From a virus (Duplodnaviria > Caudoviricetes), in the IMG/VR virus record IMGVR_UViG_3300038312_000303, positions 1 through 33,472 of that record: DNA of 33,472 bases; one strand, given 5' to 3'. This document shows, piece by piece, positions 3,730 to 20,065 of this stretch. Each line of letters starts with the position of its first letter. The first letter of the stretch is position 1. Under the pieces are notes generated by a model. The model saw nothing but the letters and a program-made list of their open reading frames with translations, did no database searches and had not been told where the DNA came from. The position numbers were made by a program, and so were the translations under genes.

Positions 3730-4088
3730 AAGTCACGATTGCGCAATTGATTGAAGCTGATGAAGCCATACGAAACTTGTTAGAGTTGAAACTGCCATTT
3801 GCTTCGAGCGTTGCGATCGGGAAGGTGATCGATGAGATCCGAGATATAGTGAGTCAAGCCCAAGAGGCGCGAATAGCAGCGCTGGAATATTTGGGAAAAA
3901 AGCAGGAAGATGGAAATTTCTTTGTTCCCCCTGATAAACAAGAGGAACTGGGGAAGATCTTTACAGATATCTACGAAACCCCAATCGAGTTGACCTCCAA
4001 GTCAATAGATCCGGTTCCGGATGGGCTGCTAAGCGTGAAAGATGTGATCACACTGGCATGGCTGTGGAAGGAGCCAGAAGATGGCTGA
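3726..4088 (+). CDS. Hypothetical phage protein of the small helical type often found between fibre and lysin
   Basis: ATGA overlap with the upstream gene; GGAGGA RBS. Confidence 0.6.
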   Translation: MKVTIAQLIEADEAIRNLLELKLPFASSVAIGKVIDEIRDIVSQAQEARIAALEYLGKKQEDGNFFVPPDKQEELGKIFTDIYETPIELTSKSIDPVPDGLLSVKDVITLAWLWKEPEDG

Positions 4089-5535
4089 CTTGCCGTTAGG
4101 GATTGATGTCAGCTCCCACCAGGGAGTGATGGATTTTGGGGTCCTGGCGAAGCGGGAACCCAAGATCTCTTTCATGGCTGCCAGGTTTGGCTGGCATGAC
4201 GATTTTGTGGACCCTCGGTTTGAAAGAAACTGGGCCGGCATGAGAGATCTGGGCGTGGGACGGATCGCCTATTGGGGGCCGGATTTCCTGGGTGATTCCA
4301 TGGACCAGGCGAGTTACATTGTGAACGCGCTGCGGGCAAAAGGGTTCAATGCGGAACATGATCGCCTGGCGATCGATGCGGAGCTGAACCAGGGAGCCGG
4401 AAAAGCCCTGATCACCATGTTCCTGGATCTATTCTCCAGGGAGGTCCAAAGATTGACCGGGCAGTGGCCGATCCTTTATTCCAGGGCGAATTGGCTGGAT
4501 CTTTACACAGATCTGAGCCAAATACCAACAGAAGTGCCGCTTTGGTTGGCCCAATATCGCTGGCGGCTGCCAGCGCCATTGTTCACGCCTGAATACGATT
4601 CCACAAAGTTGACCCTGCCCAAGGGCCGGGGTGATTGGCTGATCCACCAGACCAGTGAGCGCGGGAATGGCAGATCCTTTGGCGCAGCATCCTATTTCAT
4701 CGATTTGGACCGGTGGTATGGAACTGAGGCAGATGTGCGCGCCTTCTTTGGATATGGGGAGGAAACCCTGCCAATTCTGGACGATGTGGACCTGGCTCTT
4801 TACAAGGCGAGAGTGATCACGAGCCCAGGTTACCGCTTGATCGTGCGCAGGACTGCTGGAGGCCCTGAGGTAAGGCGTCTGGCGTCTGGTGATGTGATCA
4901 GTGTTTACCAGGAAGCCGGGGGCTGGGCGCGAATCGGCGTGGGGGAATGGGTGAGCATACAGTGGATCCAAAGGATCTATGAGGTTAACTTGCCCTTTGT
5001 GGTTGGCCCAGTTGAGGAAAGTCTGCAGCTGGAGGTGTTTGGCCAGCGGGATCCCAGGTGGTCCTGGGTGCGCTTAGGCACTGGGATGGCTACCATCGGC
5101 CAGGAAGGCTGCTTGCTGTGCTGTGTGGCGATGGTGTCCAGGTATTTTGGGTTTCAGACGGACCCAGCGATATTGAACCAGGCTCTGATCAATGTGAATG
5201 GATTTGAGCAAGGCAATCTGTTCAAGTGGTGGTCTCTGGAGAAGATCTATCCGCTGAAGTTGAACACCTGGATCGAATGTGCAACTGTGCCAGCCCCGCT
5301 GCATGAGATCGATGCTGCGCTAGCCAGGAAGGAACCCGTTTTGGTTTGGGTGGACTTCAACCCGGCGACTGCCTGGAATGACATGCATTGGGTGGTGATT
5401 ACCGGCAAGCTGCCGGGTGGGGATTATCGGATCGCGGATCCGTGGACCGGCCGGCTGGAGAGCCTGAAGGCGCGGTACTCGGATCCGGCAAGGTTTATTT
5501 TCAGGATCGTAACTTACAAAAAGACAGGAGAATAA
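4081..5535 (+). CDS. Endolysin: GH25 muramidase + SH3-like binding domain + C39-like cysteine peptidase
   Basis: GIDVSSHQG, DAE and WLAQY GH25 motifs; SH3b-like VRR..GD.ISVYQEAGGWARIG..EWV; Q.DPRW...IGQEGC...HWVVITG...IADP peptidase motifs. Confidence 0.88.
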   Translation: MADLPLGIDVSSHQGVMDFGVLAKREPKISFMAARFGWHDDFVDPRFERNWAGMRDLGVGRIAYWGPDFLGDSMDQASYIVNALRAKGFNAEHDRLAIDAELNQGAGKALITMFLDLFSREVQRLTGQWPILYSRANWLDLYTDLSQIPTEVPLWLAQYRWRLPAPLFTPEYDSTKLTLPKGRGDWLIHQTSERGNGRSFGAASYFIDLDRWYGTEADVRAFFGYGEETLPILDDVDLALYKARVITSPGYRLIVRRTAGGPEVRRLASGDVISVYQEAGGWARIGVGEWVSIQWIQRIYEVNLPFVVGPVEESLQLEVFGQRDPRWSWVRLGTGMATIGQEGCLLCCVAMVSRYFGFQTDPAILNQALINVNGFEQGNLFKWWSLEKIYPLKLNTWIECATVPAPLHEIDAALARKEPVLVWVDFNPATAWNDMHWVVITGKLPGGDYRIADPWTGRLESLKARYSDPARFIFRIVTYKKTGE

Positions 5536-5536
5536 G

Positions 5537-5755
5537 ATGGCAAAGGCAAAAGGAAATTTCAAAGTCAAGGCAACCGCTCTGAACGGGTTTGAGAATGCTG
5601 GCCCGCAGTTCAAGTTGGTGGCAGGGTTTTCCCAGGGCAATGTAGTCCAGGTAGTGGAGGAAAAAGACGGCTGGGCGAAACTGGAAGGCGGCGCCTGGGT
5701 CCCGCTTGAACACCTGGAGAAGGTGGCAGAAGAGACGAAGACGCCGGCTGCCTAA
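5537..5755 (+). CDS. Small stand-alone SH3-like protein
   Basis: V.ATALN...GP...G.VVQVVEEKDGWAKL..G.WV pattern; AGGAG RBS. Confidence 0.75.
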   Translation: MAKAKGNFKVKATALNGFENAGPQFKLVAGFSQGNVVQVVEEKDGWAKLEGGAWVPLEHLEKVAEETKTPAA

Positions 5756-7018: not shown

Positions 7019-7942
7019 TCATAAACCCCAGTTCATTACAGGGGATGCAATCCGGTGTGCATTGGCGATATCTGCCTGGGCGAGGGCGAGGTACCGCCTA
7101 ACCATGTCCAGGGTCGAATGGCCGAGGATTTGCTGGAGCGTGTAAATGTCACCGCCGTTGCGGAGGTAATTGATCGCAAAGGTGTGGCGGAAACGGTGGG
7201 GATGGACGTTCAGGACGCCGGCGCGGTCGCCTATGATATTTAATGAGCGCTGCACTGTTCCCCTTTGCTGCTTTAGGCCATCAATAGTTGAGAAAGCAGG
7301 TCCTTGGATGGATGTCGAAGGGTGTTCTGCAAAATGAGCCCATAATGCTTGCGCTGTACGGGGTGAGATCGGAATCTGCCGGCCTTTCCGACCTTTCCCA
7401 AACACTGTGATATAGCGATTTCGGAGATCTACATCTTTAACTTTTAGATCACAGAATTCTTGCACTCTAATTCCTGTATCTAGTAAAAGTAAGATAGTTG
7501 TCTTCATTCTCGAACCGTTTGAGGTCTTCTTCTTATAGGTCCGTTTTCCTGGGGTAATGCATATTCTTGAATGATCACAGGAGCCTAACAAGAGCCTTAT
7601 ATCCTGCTCAGTAAAGGGGACCACCGCGACTGTGTCTGGTTTCGGAGGTCTCACTTTTTGTGGGACTTGGGTTTCGGCAAACCCACGCTCACTAGCCCAA
7701 GTCCAGAGGGCAGACAGGCCGACATGGTAATTTAGGATCGTCTTCTTTTTAAGCTGTTTCCAGGATCCAAGAAAGCCTTCGATAATAGCCGGGGTAATAT
7801 CGTTTATCTGTACATCAACTCCAAGGTAGCTCACGAATTTATTAAACGTATTTGTGTAGTCTCTAATCGTGGCCGGTGAAAGTCTAGCATCTGCATAGAT
7901 TAGGTAACCTTCAATTGCTTTTGAAATAGGCATATTTTCCAT
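7019..7942 (-). CDS. int: Tyrosine integrase
   Basis: DTGIR, GKG, HRFRH and LGH...RY catalytic motifs; SAM-like N-terminal domain; GGAGG RBS before ATG 7942; next to tRNA-derived attP. Confidence 0.92.
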   Translation of the reverse strand: MENMPISKAIEGYLIYADARLSPATIRDYTNTFNKFVSYLGVDVQINDITPAIIEGFLGSWKQLKKKTILNYHVGLSALWTWASERGFAETQVPQKVRPPKPDTVAVVPFTEQDIRLLLGSCDHSRICITPGKRTYKKKTSNGSRMKTTILLLLDTGIRVQEFCDLKVKDVDLRNRYITVFGKGRKGRQIPISPRTAQALWAHFAEHPSTSIQGPAFSTIDGLKQQRGTVQRSLNIIGDRAGVLNVHPHRFRHTFAINYLRNGGDIYTLQQILGHSTLDMVRRYLALAQADIANAHRIASPVMNWGL

Positions 7943-7984
7943 CCTTGCTGCCTCCAAAACAGCGTTACTTATTGGGATAATGCT

Positions 7985-8038
7985 GTCTGGTCTTGGAATA
8001 TAAAAAAAGGCCAGACTTTTTTTTATCTGGTCCTTTTT
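7985..8038. terminator. Overlapping bidirectional intrinsic terminator(s) upstream of int
   Basis: Plus strand: GTCTGGTCTT/AAGGCCAGAC then T8; minus strand: AAAAAGGACCAGA...TCTGGCC then T7. Confidence 0.6.
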
Positions 8039-10957: not shown

Positions 10958-11076
10958 ATGTGCCTTTTTGACACATGCAAGAATCACACCAGAATGTGAC
11001 TAATCTCCACATTTCACTGGGTTTACCCTTGACAATGTGCGTAATAGGCACTAAGATATGTGCTAATTACGCACAA
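10958..11076. promoter_or_regulatory. Four CI/Cro operators, consensus ATGTG-N9-CAC(AT)
   Basis: 10958 ATGTGcctttttgaCACAT; 10994 ATGTGactaatctcCACAT; 11035 ATGTGcgtaataggCACTA; 11058 ATGTGctaattacgCACAA. Confidence 0.8.
11029..11057 (+). promoter_or_regulatory. Early lytic promoter (PR-like)
   Basis: TTGACA-17-TAAGAT, overlapped by operator 3 and abutted by operator 4. Confidence 0.8.
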
Positions 11077-11084
11077 GGAGCCTA

Positions 11085-11291
11085 ATGGACTGGTTAAAAG
11101 AGAAAAGACTGGAAGCAAACCTCACCCAGGAAGAAGTGGCAGTCAAGGTAGGGGTCAACAGAGCCACGGTCACGAAGATCGAGAATGGATCACGCACGCC
11201 TTCCATTTGGCTGGCAAAAAGATTGGGAGAGACACTCGGTTTCGACTGGACGCGCTTCTACGAAGAAGAGCCAGAGCCAGAGGCTGGGTAA
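11085..11291 (+). CDS. cro: Cro-like HTH regulator
   Basis: LTQEEVAVKVGVNRATVTKIENG XRE HTH; divergent from cI; AAGGAG RBS. Confidence 0.9.
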   Translation: MDWLKEKRLEANLTQEEVAVKVGVNRATVTKIENGSRTPSIWLAKRLGETLGFDWTRFYEEEPEPEAG

Positions 11292-12247
11292 TGTTTGCTG
11301 ACTCCCCCACTGAACGCGCGAATGCCTGGGCGGATGCCAGGGAGCTGTGGCTGAGCCGGCTGGGATCGCCCAATACGGCGACTTCCTATAACACCGCGCT
11401 GGGATCCCTGCTGGAATTCACCAGGAAAGCGCCCTGGGAGATCAGCCGGCGGGACATCAACGCATGGATGGCGCACCTGCAGAAAGGCAAGAGCGCGCCG
11501 GCCACGATCGCTCTGCGGTTGACGGCGGTCCGATCCTTCTACCGCTTCCTAATCACCGATTACGTGCTTATGGACCTGAATGCCGAGGAATACCGCCTGC
11601 GCGAGGATAACCCGGCGGATGGCTGCAGGACCCCCAAAGTGGAGCGCTATGGCCGCGCGATCTGCCTGGACCGGGAGCAGGCTGCGGCGCTGCTGCAGGC
11701 GATCGAGACAGATAACCTGGTGGGCAAGCGCAACAAGGCGCTGTTTGCCGGCTACATGCTGCTGGGCTTGCGGAACTCGGAGCTGAAAAACCTGAGATAC
11801 GAAGACATCGACGTGCGCGTGGAAGGCATTTATATGCGCTACACGGGCAAGGGAGGCCGGCAGCAGCTGAAAGAGATCTTCCCGCCGGTTTACCAGGCGA
11901 TCATGGCCTTCGCGGATGCGGAAAACCGCTATGAAGGCTACGTTTTCCACTCCTATGACGCGGCTGGTAAGCCGATCAACCGGCCAATCCATGACCAGAC
12001 GGTGCGGGATGCGCTGAAATACTACGCCAGGCGGGCGGGGTTACGAACCCAAGGCCTGCGGGTGCACTCTTTGAGGCACACCGCGGCGATCCTGCGAAAG
12101 GAGGCCGGTGACACAGACGAAGCGATCCAAAAGTTCTTGAAACACGGCAATGTGAACACCACCAGGATCTACCTGCAGCACCTGAAACCGGATCCGGATA
12201 AGACCTGGATGCGGGTGGCAGAGATGCTGGAAATGGTGAAATTTTGA
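11291..12247 (+). CDS. Second tyrosine recombinase (XerC/D-like)
   Basis: TAATG coupling to cro; GLRNSEL, GKG, HSLRH and LKH...TRIY catalytic motifs; SAM-like N-terminal domain. Confidence 0.9.
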   Translation: MFADSPTERANAWADARELWLSRLGSPNTATSYNTALGSLLEFTRKAPWEISRRDINAWMAHLQKGKSAPATIALRLTAVRSFYRFLITDYVLMDLNAEEYRLREDNPADGCRTPKVERYGRAICLDREQAAALLQAIETDNLVGKRNKALFAGYMLLGLRNSELKNLRYEDIDVRVEGIYMRYTGKGGRQQLKEIFPPVYQAIMAFADAENRYEGYVFHSYDAAGKPINRPIHDQTVRDALKYYARRAGLRTQGLRVHSLRHTAAILRKEAGDTDEAIQKFLKHGNVNTTRIYLQHLKPDPDKTWMRVAEMLEMVKF

Positions 12248-12895: not shown

Positions 12896-13108
12896 ATGGG
12901 AATGTTGAAAAGCGAGCTTGATGAGATCCATGAAGTGATCACGAGGACGATGCGAGAGCCAAACGAGGAAAACCTGAGCGACTACGAAACAATGGCGATC
13001 AACCAGGTGACGCGCCTTTACTTTGAGGTGCGCCGGCTGGGATACGCCTTAGAAGAGATGCAACGGGAAGCGTTGAGAAAGAAGGTGACATTTGAAGAAA
13101 ACAGATGA
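12896..13108 (+). CDS. Hypothetical helical protein
   Basis: GAGGAGG RBS. Confidence 0.65.
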   Translation: MGMLKSELDEIHEVITRTMREPNEENLSDYETMAINQVTRLYFEVRRLGYALEEMQREALRKKVTFEENR

Positions 13109-13424
13109 CACGGTCTTGGTGGTGCGTGAGATCGAGATGCACTTGAAGGAGCGGGTGATGACCCCTGGTGGACCGGGGCAACTCATCGGTAGATCGCGGG
13201 GCCCGGAAACCGGGACGGAACGGTTGATCGTGAAGCTGGATGATCAGCCTGAGAAACACCCAGGATTGAAAGTGAACCAGGTGTTTCTGTTCAACCAGGA
13301 GGACGTTGTCCCCCTGATCAACAAAACCCCGGATCCTCTGTTGGAGCAGGGATCCGGGGGTAAGGATGGGGTCTTGCGAGACACCCCCTCCATTATAGCG
13401 GAGGAAGAAGATGAGCCAGGATAG
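13092..13424 (+). CDS. Hypothetical protein
   Basis: Fills the operon gap and overlaps both neighbours; start uncertain. Confidence 0.55.
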   Translation: MKKTDDTVLVVREIEMHLKERVMTPGGPGQLIGRSRGPETGTERLIVKLDDQPEKHPGLKVNQVFLFNQEDVVPLINKTPDPLLEQGSGGKDGVLRDTPSIIAEEEDEPG

Positions 13425-13791
13425 GCCCAAGCTGACAGCTGAAGATCTATTGATCTACGAGGTAATCGAAACGCAATCGAAAAATAAACCCATCCCGGGA
13501 AAGCGGTTGGTGAAGCTGGCCCAGGACCGCGGCGTAAGGCTACACGCGCGGGGGATCAGGGAAGGAATTAAGCGCCTGCGGCGGAATGACCGGCTGATCT
13601 GCAGTCTGCCGGGCATCAAGGGCGGGTATTTCATCGCGCAGACGAAGGAAGCCTATGAAGAGTTCGTGCGCCAGGAATTCCAGGCGAAGATCATCGATAT
13701 GGCCATCACCCTGCGGGCGATGAACAGCACCGCCAAGAAAGAGTTTGGCGAATTCAAACAGCTGCATTTGAACATTGACGGCCTGAACTGA
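13411..13791 (+). CDS. Winged-HTH phage protein
   Basis: R.IRE.IK.LR...ICS....GGYFIA pattern; GGAGG RBS. Confidence 0.65.
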   Translation: MSQDRPKLTAEDLLIYEVIETQSKNKPIPGKRLVKLAQDRGVRLHARGIREGIKRLRRNDRLICSLPGIKGGYFIAQTKEAYEEFVRQEFQAKIIDMAITLRAMNSTAKKEFGEFKQLHLNIDGLN

Positions 13792-14542: not shown

Positions 14543-14623
14543 GTAAGAAATGGAGACAACAATGTGGTCACTAACTAAACTGTTTTTATAATAGCTAATA
14601 GGTTTTTGACCAAAATGTTACCT

Positions 14624-14632
14624 TGTTAGAAT
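14624..14632 (+). promoter_or_regulatory. Candidate extended -10 promoter for the methyltransferase
   Basis: TGnTAGAAT in AT-rich DNA; TTGACC 15 nt upstream of the hexamer. Confidence 0.35.
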
Positions 14633-14702
14633 TATTCAAGCTCCTAAAAATTTTTTATCAAGCGCCTGAAGAGAATACCTAATAAGGTGATAATATTCAG
14701 AT

Positions 14703-15752
14703 ATGAAGAAAATGAACGTCGAAGCAATTGATTTGTTTTGTGGTATAGGGGGATTTACCTATGGTCTTCAACAAGCAGGGGTTAGAGTGCTTGCAGGACT
14801 AGATGTGGATGAATCCTGTAAGTATGCTTTTGAGAAAAATAATTCTTGTGCTTTTATATGTGCAGACATTTCTAGTTTCGATTTTTTACAATTGTCTTCT
14901 GTGTATAGTGAAGATTCGATAAAAGTTCTTGTTGGATGTGCACCTTGTCAGCCTTTTTCATCTCATACATTCAAAGTAAAAACGAAAAACAATGACCAAC
15001 GATGGGATTTAATTAACCACTTCGTTCGAGCGATCAAAGTCCTGGAACCACACATTATCTCAATGGAGAATGTGAGGGGAATTACCAAGACAGATGTATT
15101 TAATCAGTTCCTTTCTGATGTGAAAAGATTGGGTTACGATGTAGACTATCAAATTGTATATACACCCGATTATGGTATTCCTCAGAGTAGAAGTAGGCTC
15201 GTCCTAATAGGCTCAAGAATTGGACTAATTAAGGTACCAGAAGTTACACACAATAAAGAACAATACACCTCTGTTTCAGAGGCTATTGGTAAGCTTGCTC
15301 CAATAAAAGCAGGGGAGACTTCAGAAAACGATCCGATCCATAGGGCTAAGAACTTGTCGGAGATAAATCGATTGAGAATAAAACAATCAACACCTGGGGG
15401 AACATGGAAAGACTGGGACCCTTACTTACTTCCAGGTTGCTATACAAAAGAAAGCGGTCAAACTTACACTTCCGTTTATGGTCGAATGAGTTGGGACAAC
15501 GTTGCCCCAACTATAACGACTCAGTTTTTCAATTATGGATCTGGTCGATTTGGTCATCCTGATCAAGATAGAGGTTTATCCTTACGTGAAGGGGCTTTGT
15601 TACAAACATTTCCGAGAGATTACGATTTTGGAAAAGATATATCCCTCACAAAGATTGGAAGACACATAGGCAACGCTGTTCCACCGCGGCTGGGGACTGT
15701 TATTGGAGAAGCTATGTTTAATCATGTGGTAAAGCGATATGGAAAAGAATGA
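14703..15752 (+). CDS. Orphan C5-cytosine DNA methyltransferase, M.HgiDII-like
   Basis: DLFCGIGG, GCAPCQ, ENV, Q.R.R, SVYGRM.WD..APTITTQ..GRFGHP.QDR and IGNAVP motifs; AT-rich relative to its flanks. Confidence 0.92.
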   Translation: MKKMNVEAIDLFCGIGGFTYGLQQAGVRVLAGLDVDESCKYAFEKNNSCAFICADISSFDFLQLSSVYSEDSIKVLVGCAPCQPFSSHTFKVKTKNNDQRWDLINHFVRAIKVLEPHIISMENVRGITKTDVFNQFLSDVKRLGYDVDYQIVYTPDYGIPQSRSRLVLIGSRIGLIKVPEVTHNKEQYTSVSEAIGKLAPIKAGETSENDPIHRAKNLSEINRLRIKQSTPGGTWKDWDPYLLPGCYTKESGQTYTSVYGRMSWDNVAPTITTQFFNYGSGRFGHPDQDRGLSLREGALLQTFPRDYDFGKDISLTKIGRHIGNAVPPRLGTVIGEAMFNHVVKRYGKE

Positions 15753-17808: not shown

Positions 17809-17835
17809 GCCCCTAACGGAGGAAAGATCTCTTTA

Positions 17836-17863
17836 TTGACTGAAAATTCTAAGTCGATACAAT
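17836..17863 (+). promoter_or_regulatory. Moron promoter
   Basis: TTGACT-16-TACAAT upstream of a GGAGG RBS. Confidence 0.6.
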
Positions 17864-17897
17864 TGTAAAAGATTGTTCATAGATCGATGGAGGATGT

Positions 17898-18509
17898 ATG
17901 CAAATTATTACACTATCTGGACCCTATACTTGGCCAACCTCTGTGAAGCTAGCACCAATAAGTTATAGATGTGGCTACTGTGGTGAGAAAATGAAATCAC
18001 AGGAAGGATACACGTCTAGAGAAGCGTCAACTTGGTCTGCTTCGTTTCCTAGTGGTGGAACTATCTATATTTGTTCCACTTGCGGTTCACCGACTATGTT
18101 CGATCATATTGGCGATCAATTTCCAGCACCTTGGTATGATTCCAATAGAGTTCAAAGTCTTCCAGAAATTGTTGAAGAGGTGTTCCGGGAAGCAAATATA
18201 TGTCAGCAAAATGGATGCTACACAGCGACAGTGATGCTATATCGAAAATTACTGATGCATCTTGCAGTGGAAAAGGGAGATAAACCTGGGAAAGGCTTTG
18301 TTCAATACGTAGATTATCTCGAGACCAATCATTATTTTCCCCCTGGAGGTGAAGAATGGGGGAAAAAGATTAAGGACCTCGGCAATGACGCAAATCACGA
18401 GATAGTCATTATGGGGAGCGAGGAAGCAGAACTGATCTCAACCACAATGGAAATGTTGCTTAAATTCATTTATGAGTATCCAGAAAAGTTTAGAGATACT
18501 ACAAGCTGA
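17898..18509 (+). CDS. Zn-ribbon + DUF4145 (HEPN-like) protein
   Basis: CGYC/CSTC; LPE.V...EA..C...TA.VML.RKLLMH.AV..G...F..YVDYL...IKDLGNDANHE; AT-rich with its own promoter. Confidence 0.8.
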   Translation: MQIITLSGPYTWPTSVKLAPISYRCGYCGEKMKSQEGYTSREASTWSASFPSGGTIYICSTCGSPTMFDHIGDQFPAPWYDSNRVQSLPEIVEEVFREANICQQNGCYTATVMLYRKLLMHLAVEKGDKPGKGFVQYVDYLETNHYFPPGGEEWGKKIKDLGNDANHEIVIMGSEEAELISTTMEMLLKFIYEYPEKFRDTTS

Positions 18510-18522
18510 CCGAAACCTATCT

Positions 18523-18873
18523 TTACAATGATTCGATGATGTACTTCACCAACAGGTCCTTGGCCACGGAAAGCATGAAACCGCCTGAGCCTTCCAGGAT
18601 GCTTTTGACGTGGGACCAGGCGTTATCGTGGCGGGCGGCGTCTAAGAACTCGTGGCCGGCGTTGGTGAGGCGGATGGGATAGACATGGACATCACCGCCG
18701 ATGCCAATCTCGACCTCAGCTTTGATGAAGCCGGCCTCAACCAGGATCTCCTGGTGATAGTTGATAGCATCCTGGGGAAACTGGTCCAGCACTATCGGGT
18801 GATAATCGGATGGATAAGGGAGATCTTCGTAAGCCTGAAGAATGGCCTTGATCAGATCGGGGTCGCGTTTCAT
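18523..18873 (-). CDS. DUF2513-family protein
   Basis: MKRD.DLIK.IL...YH..IL.EAGFI...RLT..GHEFLDA.R....W; AAGGAGG RBS. Confidence 0.85.
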   Translation of the reverse strand: MKRDPDLIKAILQAYEDLPYPSDYHPIVLDQFPQDAINYHQEILVEAGFIKAEVEIGIGGDVHVYPIRLTNAGHEFLDAARHDNAWSHVKSILEGSGGFMLSVAKDLLVKYIIESL

Positions 18874-18923
18874 TATTTCCTCCTTGGGATAAAGGGTGAG
18901 GTGATCGAGGAAGGGGATGCGTC

Positions 18924-19277
18924 TCATTCTTCGAGCTCACAGTACGTGGGATCCTCAGAGTCTACGGATAAGCCGGCATCACGCAGCTTCTTGAGATCGC
19001 TAGGGGTGGCGAAAGTCCACCCGGTGGAAGGGCTGCCGATAAGACGGCCCTGGGGCATGAGATCAGCCTGCTGGAGGGCATCGGCCAGGGCGAGGAAGCA
19101 GCTGAGAATGTGGGTGGTGAGGGGGAGCAGATCCTCAACGGCTTCCTGTGGCAGATGGTCCTGGGCTAGCTTGAGGAGTTCATCCAGGGTTTCCTGGTCT
19201 GACTTGCGGAGAGCCCGGCGAAAGCGCTGGAGGGCAGCGAGCTCTTCTTTCCAGGTGGGATTGTCTGGCAGATCCAT
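18924..19277 (-). CDS. Small helical protein resembling the PolB2-associated family (FRRALR..DQ..LD.L...A..H)
   Basis: Motif recognised from memory; ATG about 7 nt after the -10, so probably leaderless. Confidence 0.55.
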   Translation of the reverse strand: MDLPDNPTWKEELAALQRFRRALRKSDQETLDELLKLAQDHLPQEAVEDLLPLTTHILSCFLALADALQQADLMPQGRLIGSPSTGWTFATPSDLKKLRDAGLSVDSEDPTYCELEE

Positions 19278-19284
19278 GAAGGCT

Positions 19285-19313
19285 ATATTAGCACGCTTGT
19301 TCTATTATCGCAA
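19285..19313 (-). promoter_or_regulatory. Leftward promoter with embedded LexA-type box
   Basis: Minus strand TTGCGA-17-TAATAT; AGAAC-AAGC-GTGCT (19290-19303), one mismatch to AGAAC-N4-GTTCT. Confidence 0.65.
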
Positions 19314-19322
19314 GAGGGAAGA

Positions 19323-19529
19323 TTGATATCGCAAGGGTTGATGGGTGATCAGGCGGAATCGGTCCAGGACAGAAATGACGGACCGGTTCTTGCTGAATCG
19401 GCGATGGAACGGATCCGCAAGGCGGTGGACCTGGTGATCGCGGATGGCTATGGCCGGGTGATCATCGAAATCAAGAAGGGGAAGATCTTGATGATCACGA
19501 AGGAGTTCAGCGAGAAAGTTAACGAGTAA
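19323..19529 (+). CDS. Small DUF2292/YezD-like protein (start uncertain: 19323, 19341 or 19404)
   Basis: I..AV.....GYGRVIIEIKKGKI..I....K pattern. Confidence 0.6.
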   Translation: MISQGLMGDQAESVQDRNDGPVLAESAMERIRKAVDLVIADGYGRVIIEIKKGKILMITKEFSEKVNE

Positions 19530-19533
19530 ACGC

Positions 19534-19562
19534 TTGCATAATTAGAACAATTATGCTATTAT
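19534..19562 (+). promoter_or_regulatory. Putative late promoter with degenerate LexA-type box
   Basis: TTGCAT-17-TATTAT with TG extension; AGAAC-AATT-ATGCT at 19544-19557. Confidence 0.6.
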
Positions 19563-19594
19563 TTAAGCGTTGATTGGCCCAGCGAGGCATTGAT

Positions 19595-19639
19595 CCCGGG
19601 GCTGAAGACCAGTGTTTTCAGCGTCCCGGGTTTTCGTTT
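19595..19639 (+). terminator. Intrinsic terminator in the late-operon leader
   Basis: CCCGGG-GCTGAAGAC-cagt-GTTTTCAGC-gt-CCCGGG followed by TTTTCGTTT. Confidence 0.7.
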
Positions 19640-19663
19640 AATCCGGGGGAAGAGGAGAGAACG

Positions 19664-20065
19664 ATGTCAATCGAGTGGAGCCCAATCATCTCAGCAGTTA
19701 TCCAGGCAGTTTTGTTGGTGGTGTTACCGGTGATCGCGAGCGCGGTCACGGCTTTCCTGCTGGCCCAAGCTAAGTTCCTGTGGGCCAAGGCGCGGGCGTG
19801 GAACCCATCGGTCACGGCGTTGATCGAGGAAGCCGCGATCTTTGCGGTGCGCGCGGCTGAGCAGGCCGGCGCGGGTGAGTTGATCGAAGATAAGAAATTG
19901 TACGCCCTGGACATTGCCGAAAGGTGGCTGGCAGAGCGTTCGTTGTATATTGACATTACCCTTTTGGAAGCGGCAATTGAAAAGGCGGTGCTGGAGCAGT
20001 TCAACCCTGAGCTGCTGGCGCCCGCGTCTTTGGAGACTGCGCCCATGGTAGACGAGCTTGCCTGA
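19664..20065 (+). CDS. LL-H-family holin-like protein
   Basis: N-terminal TM segment; AVRAAEQ...G...KK.YA...IE.AV motif; GAGGAG RBS. Confidence 0.7.
   Translation: MSIEWSPIISAVIQAVLLVVLPVIASAVTAFLLAQAKFLWAKARAWNPSVTALIEEAAIFAVRAAEQAGAGELIEDKKLYALDIAERWLAERSLYIDITLLEAAIEKAVLEQFNPELLAPASLETAPMVDELA

Follow-up and report, generated by a model that had tools for sequence, protein, structure and literature searches.

How does a temperate phage time the expression of its lysis, packaging and head-tail genes if no late activator can be recognised in its genome? This question is raised by a phage DNA of 33,472 nucleotides (IMG/VR record IMGVR_UViG_3300038312_000303), the whole of which is called the window here. 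The genome is of the temperate siphophage type, with a repressor, two tyrosine recombinases and an early rightward region. Its late run encodes, in this order, holin, HNH, terminase, portal, protease, capsid, connector and tail proteins, followed by the endolysin past the contig junction. The contig start is repeated by its last 99 nt with one mismatch, and the late run thus continues across the junction to position 5755, i.e. over about 19.5 kb. The first-pass annotation had described such a holin-packaging-head-tail-lysin run of about 19 kb starting at 19534-19562. It had also recognised no RinA, ArpU, Q or sigma-factor gene, and indeed no member of these families was found among 51 ORFs with Pfam and PHROGs or among 20 ORFs of the window with NCBIfam. 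The two nearest matches of the terminase in species genomes (66% and 61%) are both in Anaerolineaceae assemblies, which points to an Anaerolineae bacterium as the likely host.

Several other features of this genome were observed. The tyrosine recombinase genes are located at 11060-12247 and 7019-7957, and one of them heads the early rightward region, at the usual place of cro. Between the repressor and the early genes, a GTGC-N7-GCAC palindrome is present three times (10960-10974, 11037-11051 and 11060-11074; two copies are perfect), and these copies are likely CI operators. Two stretches, 14545-15752 and 17810-19277, have a lower GC content, look like insertions and possess their own promoter-like sites; their gene content is a cytosine methyltransferase and DUF4145 and DUF2513 genes, respectively. 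A strong minus-strand hairpin with a U-tract (13294-13326, -24.2 kcal/mol) lies inside the early ORF 13092-13424; another hairpin, at 7985-8025 upstream of the integrase, is accompanied by long T runs near 8017.

The region that precedes the holin gene contains the following elements.

19323-19529, plus strand: small DUF2292-like gene, candidate RNA-binding antiterminator (public assembly gene call, profile, AlphaFold2)
19534-19562, plus strand: predicted late promoter, TTGCAT-17 nt-extended -10 TG-n-TATTAT (sequence and relatives)
19574-19605, plus strand: predicted antiterminator hairpin of 32 nt (alignment A4, nascent-RNA folding)
19580-19599, plus strand: nearly invariant core CAGCGAGGCA-nn-GATCCCGG, candidate protein-binding site (alignment A4)
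19595-19639, plus strand: predicted intrinsic terminator, hairpin 19595-19630 and U-tract 19631-19639 (folding)
19652-20065, plus strand: ribosome-binding site GAGGAG (19652-19657) and holin gene (ATG at 19664, gene 19664-20065), first of the gated operon (sequence, Pfam, PHROGs)

The holin assignment comes from PHROG holin families and from Pfam Holin_LLH (E 9e-5). The late promoter consists of TTGCAT (19534-19539), a 17-nt spacer ending in TG-C, and TATTAT (19557-19562), with a start predicted near 19569. Since its -35 matches the consensus at only three of six positions, it was omitted by a consensus scanner, and its prediction therefore rests on the extended -10 and on the relatives described below. 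Among eight related leaders, seven contain a promoter-like site that scores 9-11 out of 13 and ends 10-49 nt before the core, and L350 scored 8. The promoter-like site at 19534-19562 noticed earlier is thus present and has counterparts. A scan with the promoter pattern returned 84 loci, with one relevant locus (L133, identical to L059) among the matches listed.

Does the leader then contain a functional stop for RNA polymerase? The first-pass annotation had placed a 15-bp hairpin plus U-tract in a leader of about 95 nt, and this structure stood up well. Fifteen pairs, a bulge of 2 nt and a loop of 4 nt make up the hairpin, which is followed by TTTTCGTTT. None of 200 shuffled sequences folds as well (z = -4.28), and at -23.0 kcal/mol it is the strongest of seven plus-strand candidates in a scan of the genome, although a separate standard terminator scan did not call it. 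This genome scan gave no strong intergenic terminator further along the late operon, the other candidates of the late run being within coding sequence.

The upstream half of the leader is predicted to adopt another fold as well. In the predicted antiterminator hairpin, an outer stem formed by 19574-19579 and 19600-19605 closes the conserved core, which occurs as a single copy in the genome and gives the one strong match of model R1 in the window. The 3' end of this hairpin and the 5' arm of the terminator have 11 bases in common (19595-19605), and the two folds therefore exclude each other. For transcripts ending at 19604-19620 (36-52 nt long) the minimum-energy fold contains the antiterminator, and from 19624 on it contains the terminator. 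Over 19569-19645 the terminator fold reaches -27.8 kcal/mol versus -18.1 kcal/mol when the antiterminator stem is forced, and with this advantage of about 10 kcal/mol the default state would be off. Taken by itself, the antiterminator hairpin has an ordinary stability (z = -0.47; 58 of 200 shuffled sequences fold as well), which is expected of a fold that needs a ligand and yet is also a reason for caution. The leader segment 19571-19594 put forward in the first-pass annotation was too short: the conserved element runs into the terminator arm, and that segment leaves out precisely the 11 bases that make the switch. Rfam gave no match in the window, and three sub-threshold miRNA matches in nine related loci. 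Among contigs from four of 17 RNA-library runs, of low depth and fragmentary, three cross the promoter region and the terminator; their strand and ends are not readable and they may derive from DNA.

If this hairpin matters to the phage, it should be conserved where its neighbours have diverged. Relatives were reached through the terminase and through one protein-pattern scan. In these related phages, the lysis or packaging genes are preceded by a small gene and a promoter-like site, together with a short leader and terminator. The core, in the form CAGCGAG(G)CA-n(n)-GATCCCGG, is common to the window, L377 and L350, the latter with an unrelated terminase. Because it resembles L059, the 5' part (19572-19580) was at first taken for a conserved loop; this idea was abandoned once L377 and L350 had revealed the real core. 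A scan of IMG/VR with the core pattern, which was chosen after seeing the window and L350, returned at least 119 loci (about 120 estimated) in 103 distinct contexts. The hairpin is present in eight related phage sequences from seven further lineages (L377, L350 which equals L504, L411/L414, L460/L471, L472, L501 and L509; L411/L414 and L460/L471 are near-copies). Scans with the shorter leader segment gave no match, and with a gapped version of it 52 loci were obtained, in none of which the motif test identified a family gene. A match of model R1 downstream of a DUF2292 gene in L306 (E 0.18) has no terminator and was treated as chance.

Nine sequences were aligned (A4: window, L350, L377, L411, L460, L471, L472, L501 and L509; L414 was left out as a near-copy of L411). 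In the core, 15 of 20 columns are invariant, and the flanks differ. Nevertheless the flanks keep pairing: with six bases on each side in the outer stem, 90.8% of 98 cells are standard pairs, versus 35-53% in controls slid by 1-3 columns. A covariation test of homologous leaders had been suggested along with the first-pass annotation, and in these nine sequences the outer stem does covary, five of 11 pairs having two-sided changes, all of them in this stem. The paired fraction was reached by none of 500 shuffles, a control that kinship can inflate. RNAalifold recovers the same outer stem unprompted, with an inner register that differs from our structure; the inner pairs never vary across the alignment, and two inner registers are proposed. 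As exceptions in the outer stem, L411 keeps four of six pairs and L377 pairs in another register. In all nine sequences the 5' arm of the terminator starts inside the core, though the terminator sequences differ. The first downstream genes encode holins in L377, L460 and L501 and the terminase in L350; those of L411, L472 and L509 gave no PHROG match.

The small gene and the hairpin travel together. Among the 103 core contexts, eight have an overlapping terminator and 95 have neither a terminator nor a family gene within the available flanks (39 of the 119 loci had at most 300 nt of flank, and the search beyond the flank covered L501 and L509 alone). In six of the eight terminator-positive contexts a family gene ends 23-91 nt upstream, with E-values of 2e-9 to 3e-6 among 838 ORFs for a profile of 11 proteins that did not include these six. 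In the other two records the gene is farther upstream, at about 1.3 kb in L501 and at 727 nt in L509. A family gene is thus present upstream in eight of the eight related sequences with hairpin and terminator. When only contexts with at least 1000 nt upstream are considered, three have both (two being near-copies) and 65 have neither. Neighbours may, however, be inherited together without interacting.

More can be learned from the leaders that have another sequence. Among 17 related packaging loci, L377 has the hairpin of the window type. A second motif, RCGGC-N4-RACCGY (motif A), is found in four loci, three of them distinct (L147, L206 and L231, plus the copy L355), and the family proteins of these loci group on one side of a branch (93/94). 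Leaders of this type are located at L147:910-1312, L231:4314-5014 and L206:3511-5044, with two tandem copies in L147 and L231. A third one, GAGTTTAYCGCC (motif B), occurs in four loci (L145, L146, L229 and L378) that have zinc-ribbon genes, three identified by pattern and that of L146 by eye, and no family gene. Motif B runs into a terminator at the same position (L145:4081-4700, L146:505-865 and 4040-4192, L229:4907-5286, L378:3528-3882), and in L146 this leader is present twice, ahead of two operons. In L359 and L368 a family gene is accompanied by a different leader; the remaining six loci (L001, L059, L164, L241, L358 and L384) lack all three motifs as well as any clear family gene. Since leader motif A or B follows the protein type, protein and RNA appear to have been swapped as a pair among related loci. 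The proteins linked to the window-type hairpin do not form a supported clade: the tree requires four changes, a number as low being reached in 132 of 500 shuffles. Terminator-containing leaders of yet other sequence were seen at L322:1465-1760, L352, L359:4702-5100, L368:4574-5330, L001:181-1046 and L059:3131-3896. Of these, L322, L359 and L368 have family genes, L001 has a small ORF without the motif, and L059 has a zinc-finger-like ORF and a promoter resembling that of the window. Model R1 detected none of the leaders with motif A or B, nor those of L322, L359, L368, L352, L001 and L059.

What is the small protein? A small gene with a GYG.V.I.I..G motif had been noticed just upstream of the promoter, and the ORF 19323-19529 indeed encodes this motif and is called in public assemblies. 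Its product has 68 residues from a TTG start, or 62 from the ATG at 19341. Single-sequence searches returned the protein itself alone, and a three-sequence profile added six proteins, all relatives of the two added rows. With a profile of the eight other hairpin-linked proteins, the window ORF was the best of 350 (E 5.8e-7). AlphaFold2, run with 16 sequences, predicts a helix (25-41) and two strands (44-51 and 54-62) forming a beta-hairpin, with a mean pLDDT of 73.6 and no helix-turn-helix. Fold searches returned nothing significant (PDB best E 1.3, VIA best Z 4.1, viral best E 0.14), which does not show that the fold is new. The protein is not net basic (10 K+R, 12 D+E), a point that counts against an RNA-binding antiterminator.

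The relation to DUF2292 that was proposed earlier holds at the level of remote homology and not at that of Pfam membership. PF10055 does not match the small protein at E up to 5, its gathering cut-off of 22 bits not being reached, and matches five of the 16 relatives weakly (best E 6.5e-5). When the nine hairpin-linked proteins are aligned by hhalign with seven PF10055 matches, some of them below the cut-off, the probability is 89% (E 2e-6, 37 columns). The Atlas neighbours of the protein include DUF2292 clusters, below the Atlas naming bar. The protein is thus DUF2292-like by profile comparison. Both have a helix, an [FYW]G turn and a beta-hairpin, and both genes precede a bulged hairpin that runs into a terminator: read by eye, this layout is present downstream of DUF2292 genes in three of four loci of Bacilli, whose leaders differ in RNA sequence from that of the window. 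OscA of Pseudomonas, a putative member of the DUF2292/YezD family, is linked to sulfur-uptake genes (PMC3596284), whereas the window element would gate phage late genes. When 401 Anaerolineae genomes were searched with protein profiles, most matches were chance ones in long frames. On one Anaerolineae chromosome (L309, G285:C25), two tandem DUF2292-like ORFs are followed by a terminator-like hairpin and then by a NusG-like gene, as read by eye.

Taken together, we consider that the leader is probably a protein-operated attenuator with a single terminator (probability about 0.7), in which the small protein would hold the hairpin so that the late genes are read through. The late promoter would fire and, by default, RNA polymerase would halt at about 19639. 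The covariation in relatives suggests that the outer stem pairs in vivo, and the invariance of the core that it is read by a sequence-specific factor; the co-occurrence of the genes points to the DUF2292-like protein as this factor. As its gene stands at the end of the early region, like that of lambda Q, the protein would be made late in the early programme. Once accumulated, it would stabilise the hairpin on the nascent transcript, so that the 5' arm is no longer available to the terminator and the 19.5-kb operon is transcribed. The action of the protein would probably be confined to this one terminator. In L377 the family gene follows an early gene at a distance of 4 nt; that of L411, L460 and L472 is the last of a same-strand run. 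In the window, two leftward genes stand between the small gene and the early operon, which counts against this reading. The insertion-like stretch 17810-19277 is what parts the two.

Among known systems, BglG, SacY and LicT resemble this proposal most in mechanism. These proteins combine a CAT RNA-binding domain with PRD domains and act on a RAT hairpin under the control of sugar-dependent phosphorylation. Here too, a bulged hairpin of about 30 nt overlaps the 5' arm of one intrinsic terminator, the default is off and the protein would stabilise the weaker of two folds, as predicted for the window, where 11 bases are common to both; the overlap recurs in every aligned sequence. In contrast, the window protein matches neither a CAT nor a PRD domain in Pfam or NCBIfam, has 62-68 residues folded as a helix and a beta-hairpin, and faces a distinct RNA sequence that would gate a phage late operon, likely timed by protein synthesis.

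The first-pass annotation had suggested that the small protein and the leader together permit read-through. The conservation and covariation of the hairpin, its overlap with the terminator and the co-occurrence of the gene now speak for this idea, whereas the analogies then drawn, lambda Q and conAn of pLS20, are off in mechanism. The Q protein of lambda joins RNA polymerase, and its gene lies upstream of PR', followed by tR' and the late genes. The same order of regulator gene, late promoter, terminator and then lysis, packaging, head and tail genes is seen in the window, and also in L377, L411, L460 and L472. However, Q binds DNA between -35 and -10, as described in the available text of PMC8191782, and the window element is an RNA stem that overlaps the terminator, 10-55 nt from the -10. 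No Q-family match was obtained with Pfam, PHROG or NCBIfam, and no DNA site is conserved between -35 and -10 in nine promoters. According to the same text, conAn is processive and acts only in cis, an RNA within a region of about 300 nt antiterminating alone across many terminators, and the processivity domain of ConAn1 is PF17362 (PMC8191782). The likeness is one of two parts, a small protein gene and then an RNA element, heading a long operon. The differences are that the window RNA has 32 nt, overlaps its terminator and has its own predicted promoter between gene and RNA, and that in relatives the family gene can be up to 1.3 kb from the hairpin with genes between. No PF17362 match was obtained in the Pfam searches, and no large RNA in cis directly follows the gene.

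Processive antitermination nevertheless deserves discussion. The hairpin could be a loading site, as boxB is for lambda N, or like conAn2, from which the small protein would alter RNA polymerase to ignore this and later terminators over 19 kb. The length of the operon, the invariant core, the Q-like placing of the gene and the two tandem copies in some motif-A leaders would fit. A loading site would not need to overlap the terminator arm, as the hairpin does in nine of nine sequences, and the late operon has no strong intergenic terminator candidates downstream that would have to be ignored. Nor did any match to the families of Q, N, NusG or ConAn1 (PF17362) emerge. Single-terminator attenuation is set apart from processive antitermination in the available text of PMC8191782, and a short hairpin that competes for the bases of one terminator belongs with the former. 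We regard the processive reading as improbable.

Equally improbable in our opinion is that the hairpin is a real switch operated by a host RNA-binding protein, a metabolite or another phage protein, the small gene being merely linked to it. The gene-to-hairpin distance, which ranges up to 1.3 kb, leaves room for such an operator, and the ORF 13411-13791, which had been mentioned as a possible late activator, belongs to phrog_2113 (function unknown) and has a counterpart in L377. Nothing ties this ORF to the window leader, and phrog_2113 is also present in L384, whose terminase has no hairpin upstream. The family gene, on the other hand, is upstream of the hairpin in all eight relatives, even with an unrelated terminase (L350) or inserted genes. 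As for a host factor, the core pattern matched 33 times in 401 Anaerolineae genomes, in no case with a terminator, and thus no host regulon of the hairpin was seen. We prefer the small protein mainly because the type of RNA pairs with the type of protein, which is a correlation.

A third alternative is that the small protein activates the late promoter by binding DNA, like the late activators RinA and ArpU or like Q loading at the spacer, the conserved 20-mer being its DNA site. The gene abuts the promoter, the spacer contains a palindrome (19536-19556) and the -35 is imperfect. However, the covariation of the flanks is that of a single-strand stem, the core lies at a variable 10-55 nt from the -10 and the spacers differ among the nine promoters, most related promoters are near consensus and the protein model has no helix-turn-helix, so that this alternative is very unlikely.

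In addition to the attenuator, a transcriptional layer may exist at this locus, and three further elements have to be introduced.

19545-19556, plus strand: 12-mer resembling a LexA box within the spacer of the late promoter, adjacent to the -10 like the boxes of host recA promoters (sequence comparison)
19285-19313, minus strand: predicted leftward promoter, TTGCGA-17 nt-TG-n-TAATAT (sequence)
19261-19289, plus strand: weak candidate rightward promoter for the small gene (consensus scan)

GAAC-N4-GTTC is the LexA site of Bacillus and Mycobacterium in the available text of PMC3323433. With at most one mismatch, we found it between -35 and -10 in 10 of 10 recA or lexA upstream regions of five Chloroflexota genomes, and in the recA promoters it abuts the -10; from these promoters we infer that it may be the LexA site in Chloroflexota as well. 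The box in the late promoter has two mismatches to this sequence and one to the recA box of L561. The leftward and late promoters face outward around the small gene and are identical at 21 of 29 bases. The former contains a recA-type LexA-box-like site (19291-19302, one mismatch) and would yield a leaderless mRNA with the ORF 19277-18924 (weak DUF8156) and then the DUF2513 gene. This box also spans the expected start site of the weak rightward promoter, TTGTCT-17-TATATT, the only one listed by the consensus scanner (1 found, 1.8 expected by chance); as its -10 overlaps the leftward -10, this promoter may be incidental. The late-promoter spacer box is absent from seven of seven related leaders checked and is thus particular to the window phage. 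An additional coupling of the switch to the host SOS response, through LexA boxes over the late promoter and over the transcription start site of the antiterminator gene, is a tentative idea that we would not yet count on; if true, it would make a two-key lock on lysis.

Finally, a protein-independent attenuator, in which the hairpin tunes a fixed leak and repression by host LexA or phage CI sets the timing, could call on the LexA-box-like site in the register of host recA promoters and on a sequence over the -35 that differs from the cI-region palindrome at two positions. It has hardly any chance of being right: the box is absent from the related leaders, the terminator fold is favoured by about 10 kcal/mol, a fixed leak needs neither an invariant core nor a linked gene, and the two-mismatch CI-operator look-alikes at 19280-19294 and 19534-19548 do not exceed chance expectation (11 of 100 shuffles).

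Beyond this phage, we lean towards the view that DUF2292-like proteins constitute an unrecognised family of minimal RNA-binding antiterminators that may replace Q in the timing of late genes in Chloroflexota phages, in interchangeable protein-RNA pairs; this family would have two or more types of RNA, and zinc-ribbon proteins a third one. In the openly accessible literature searched, no description of this hairpin or of an antiterminator role of the DUF2292 family was found, nor any molecular function of DUF2292/YezD. If our reading is true, a molecular function would be provided for this widespread uncharacterised family. It would explain the timing of late genes in temperate phages that have no Q, RinA, ArpU or sigma factor. 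It would also mean that protein-RNA switches can be very small, with about 60 residues and 32 nt, and exist in several sequence types, which could be possible orthogonal parts.
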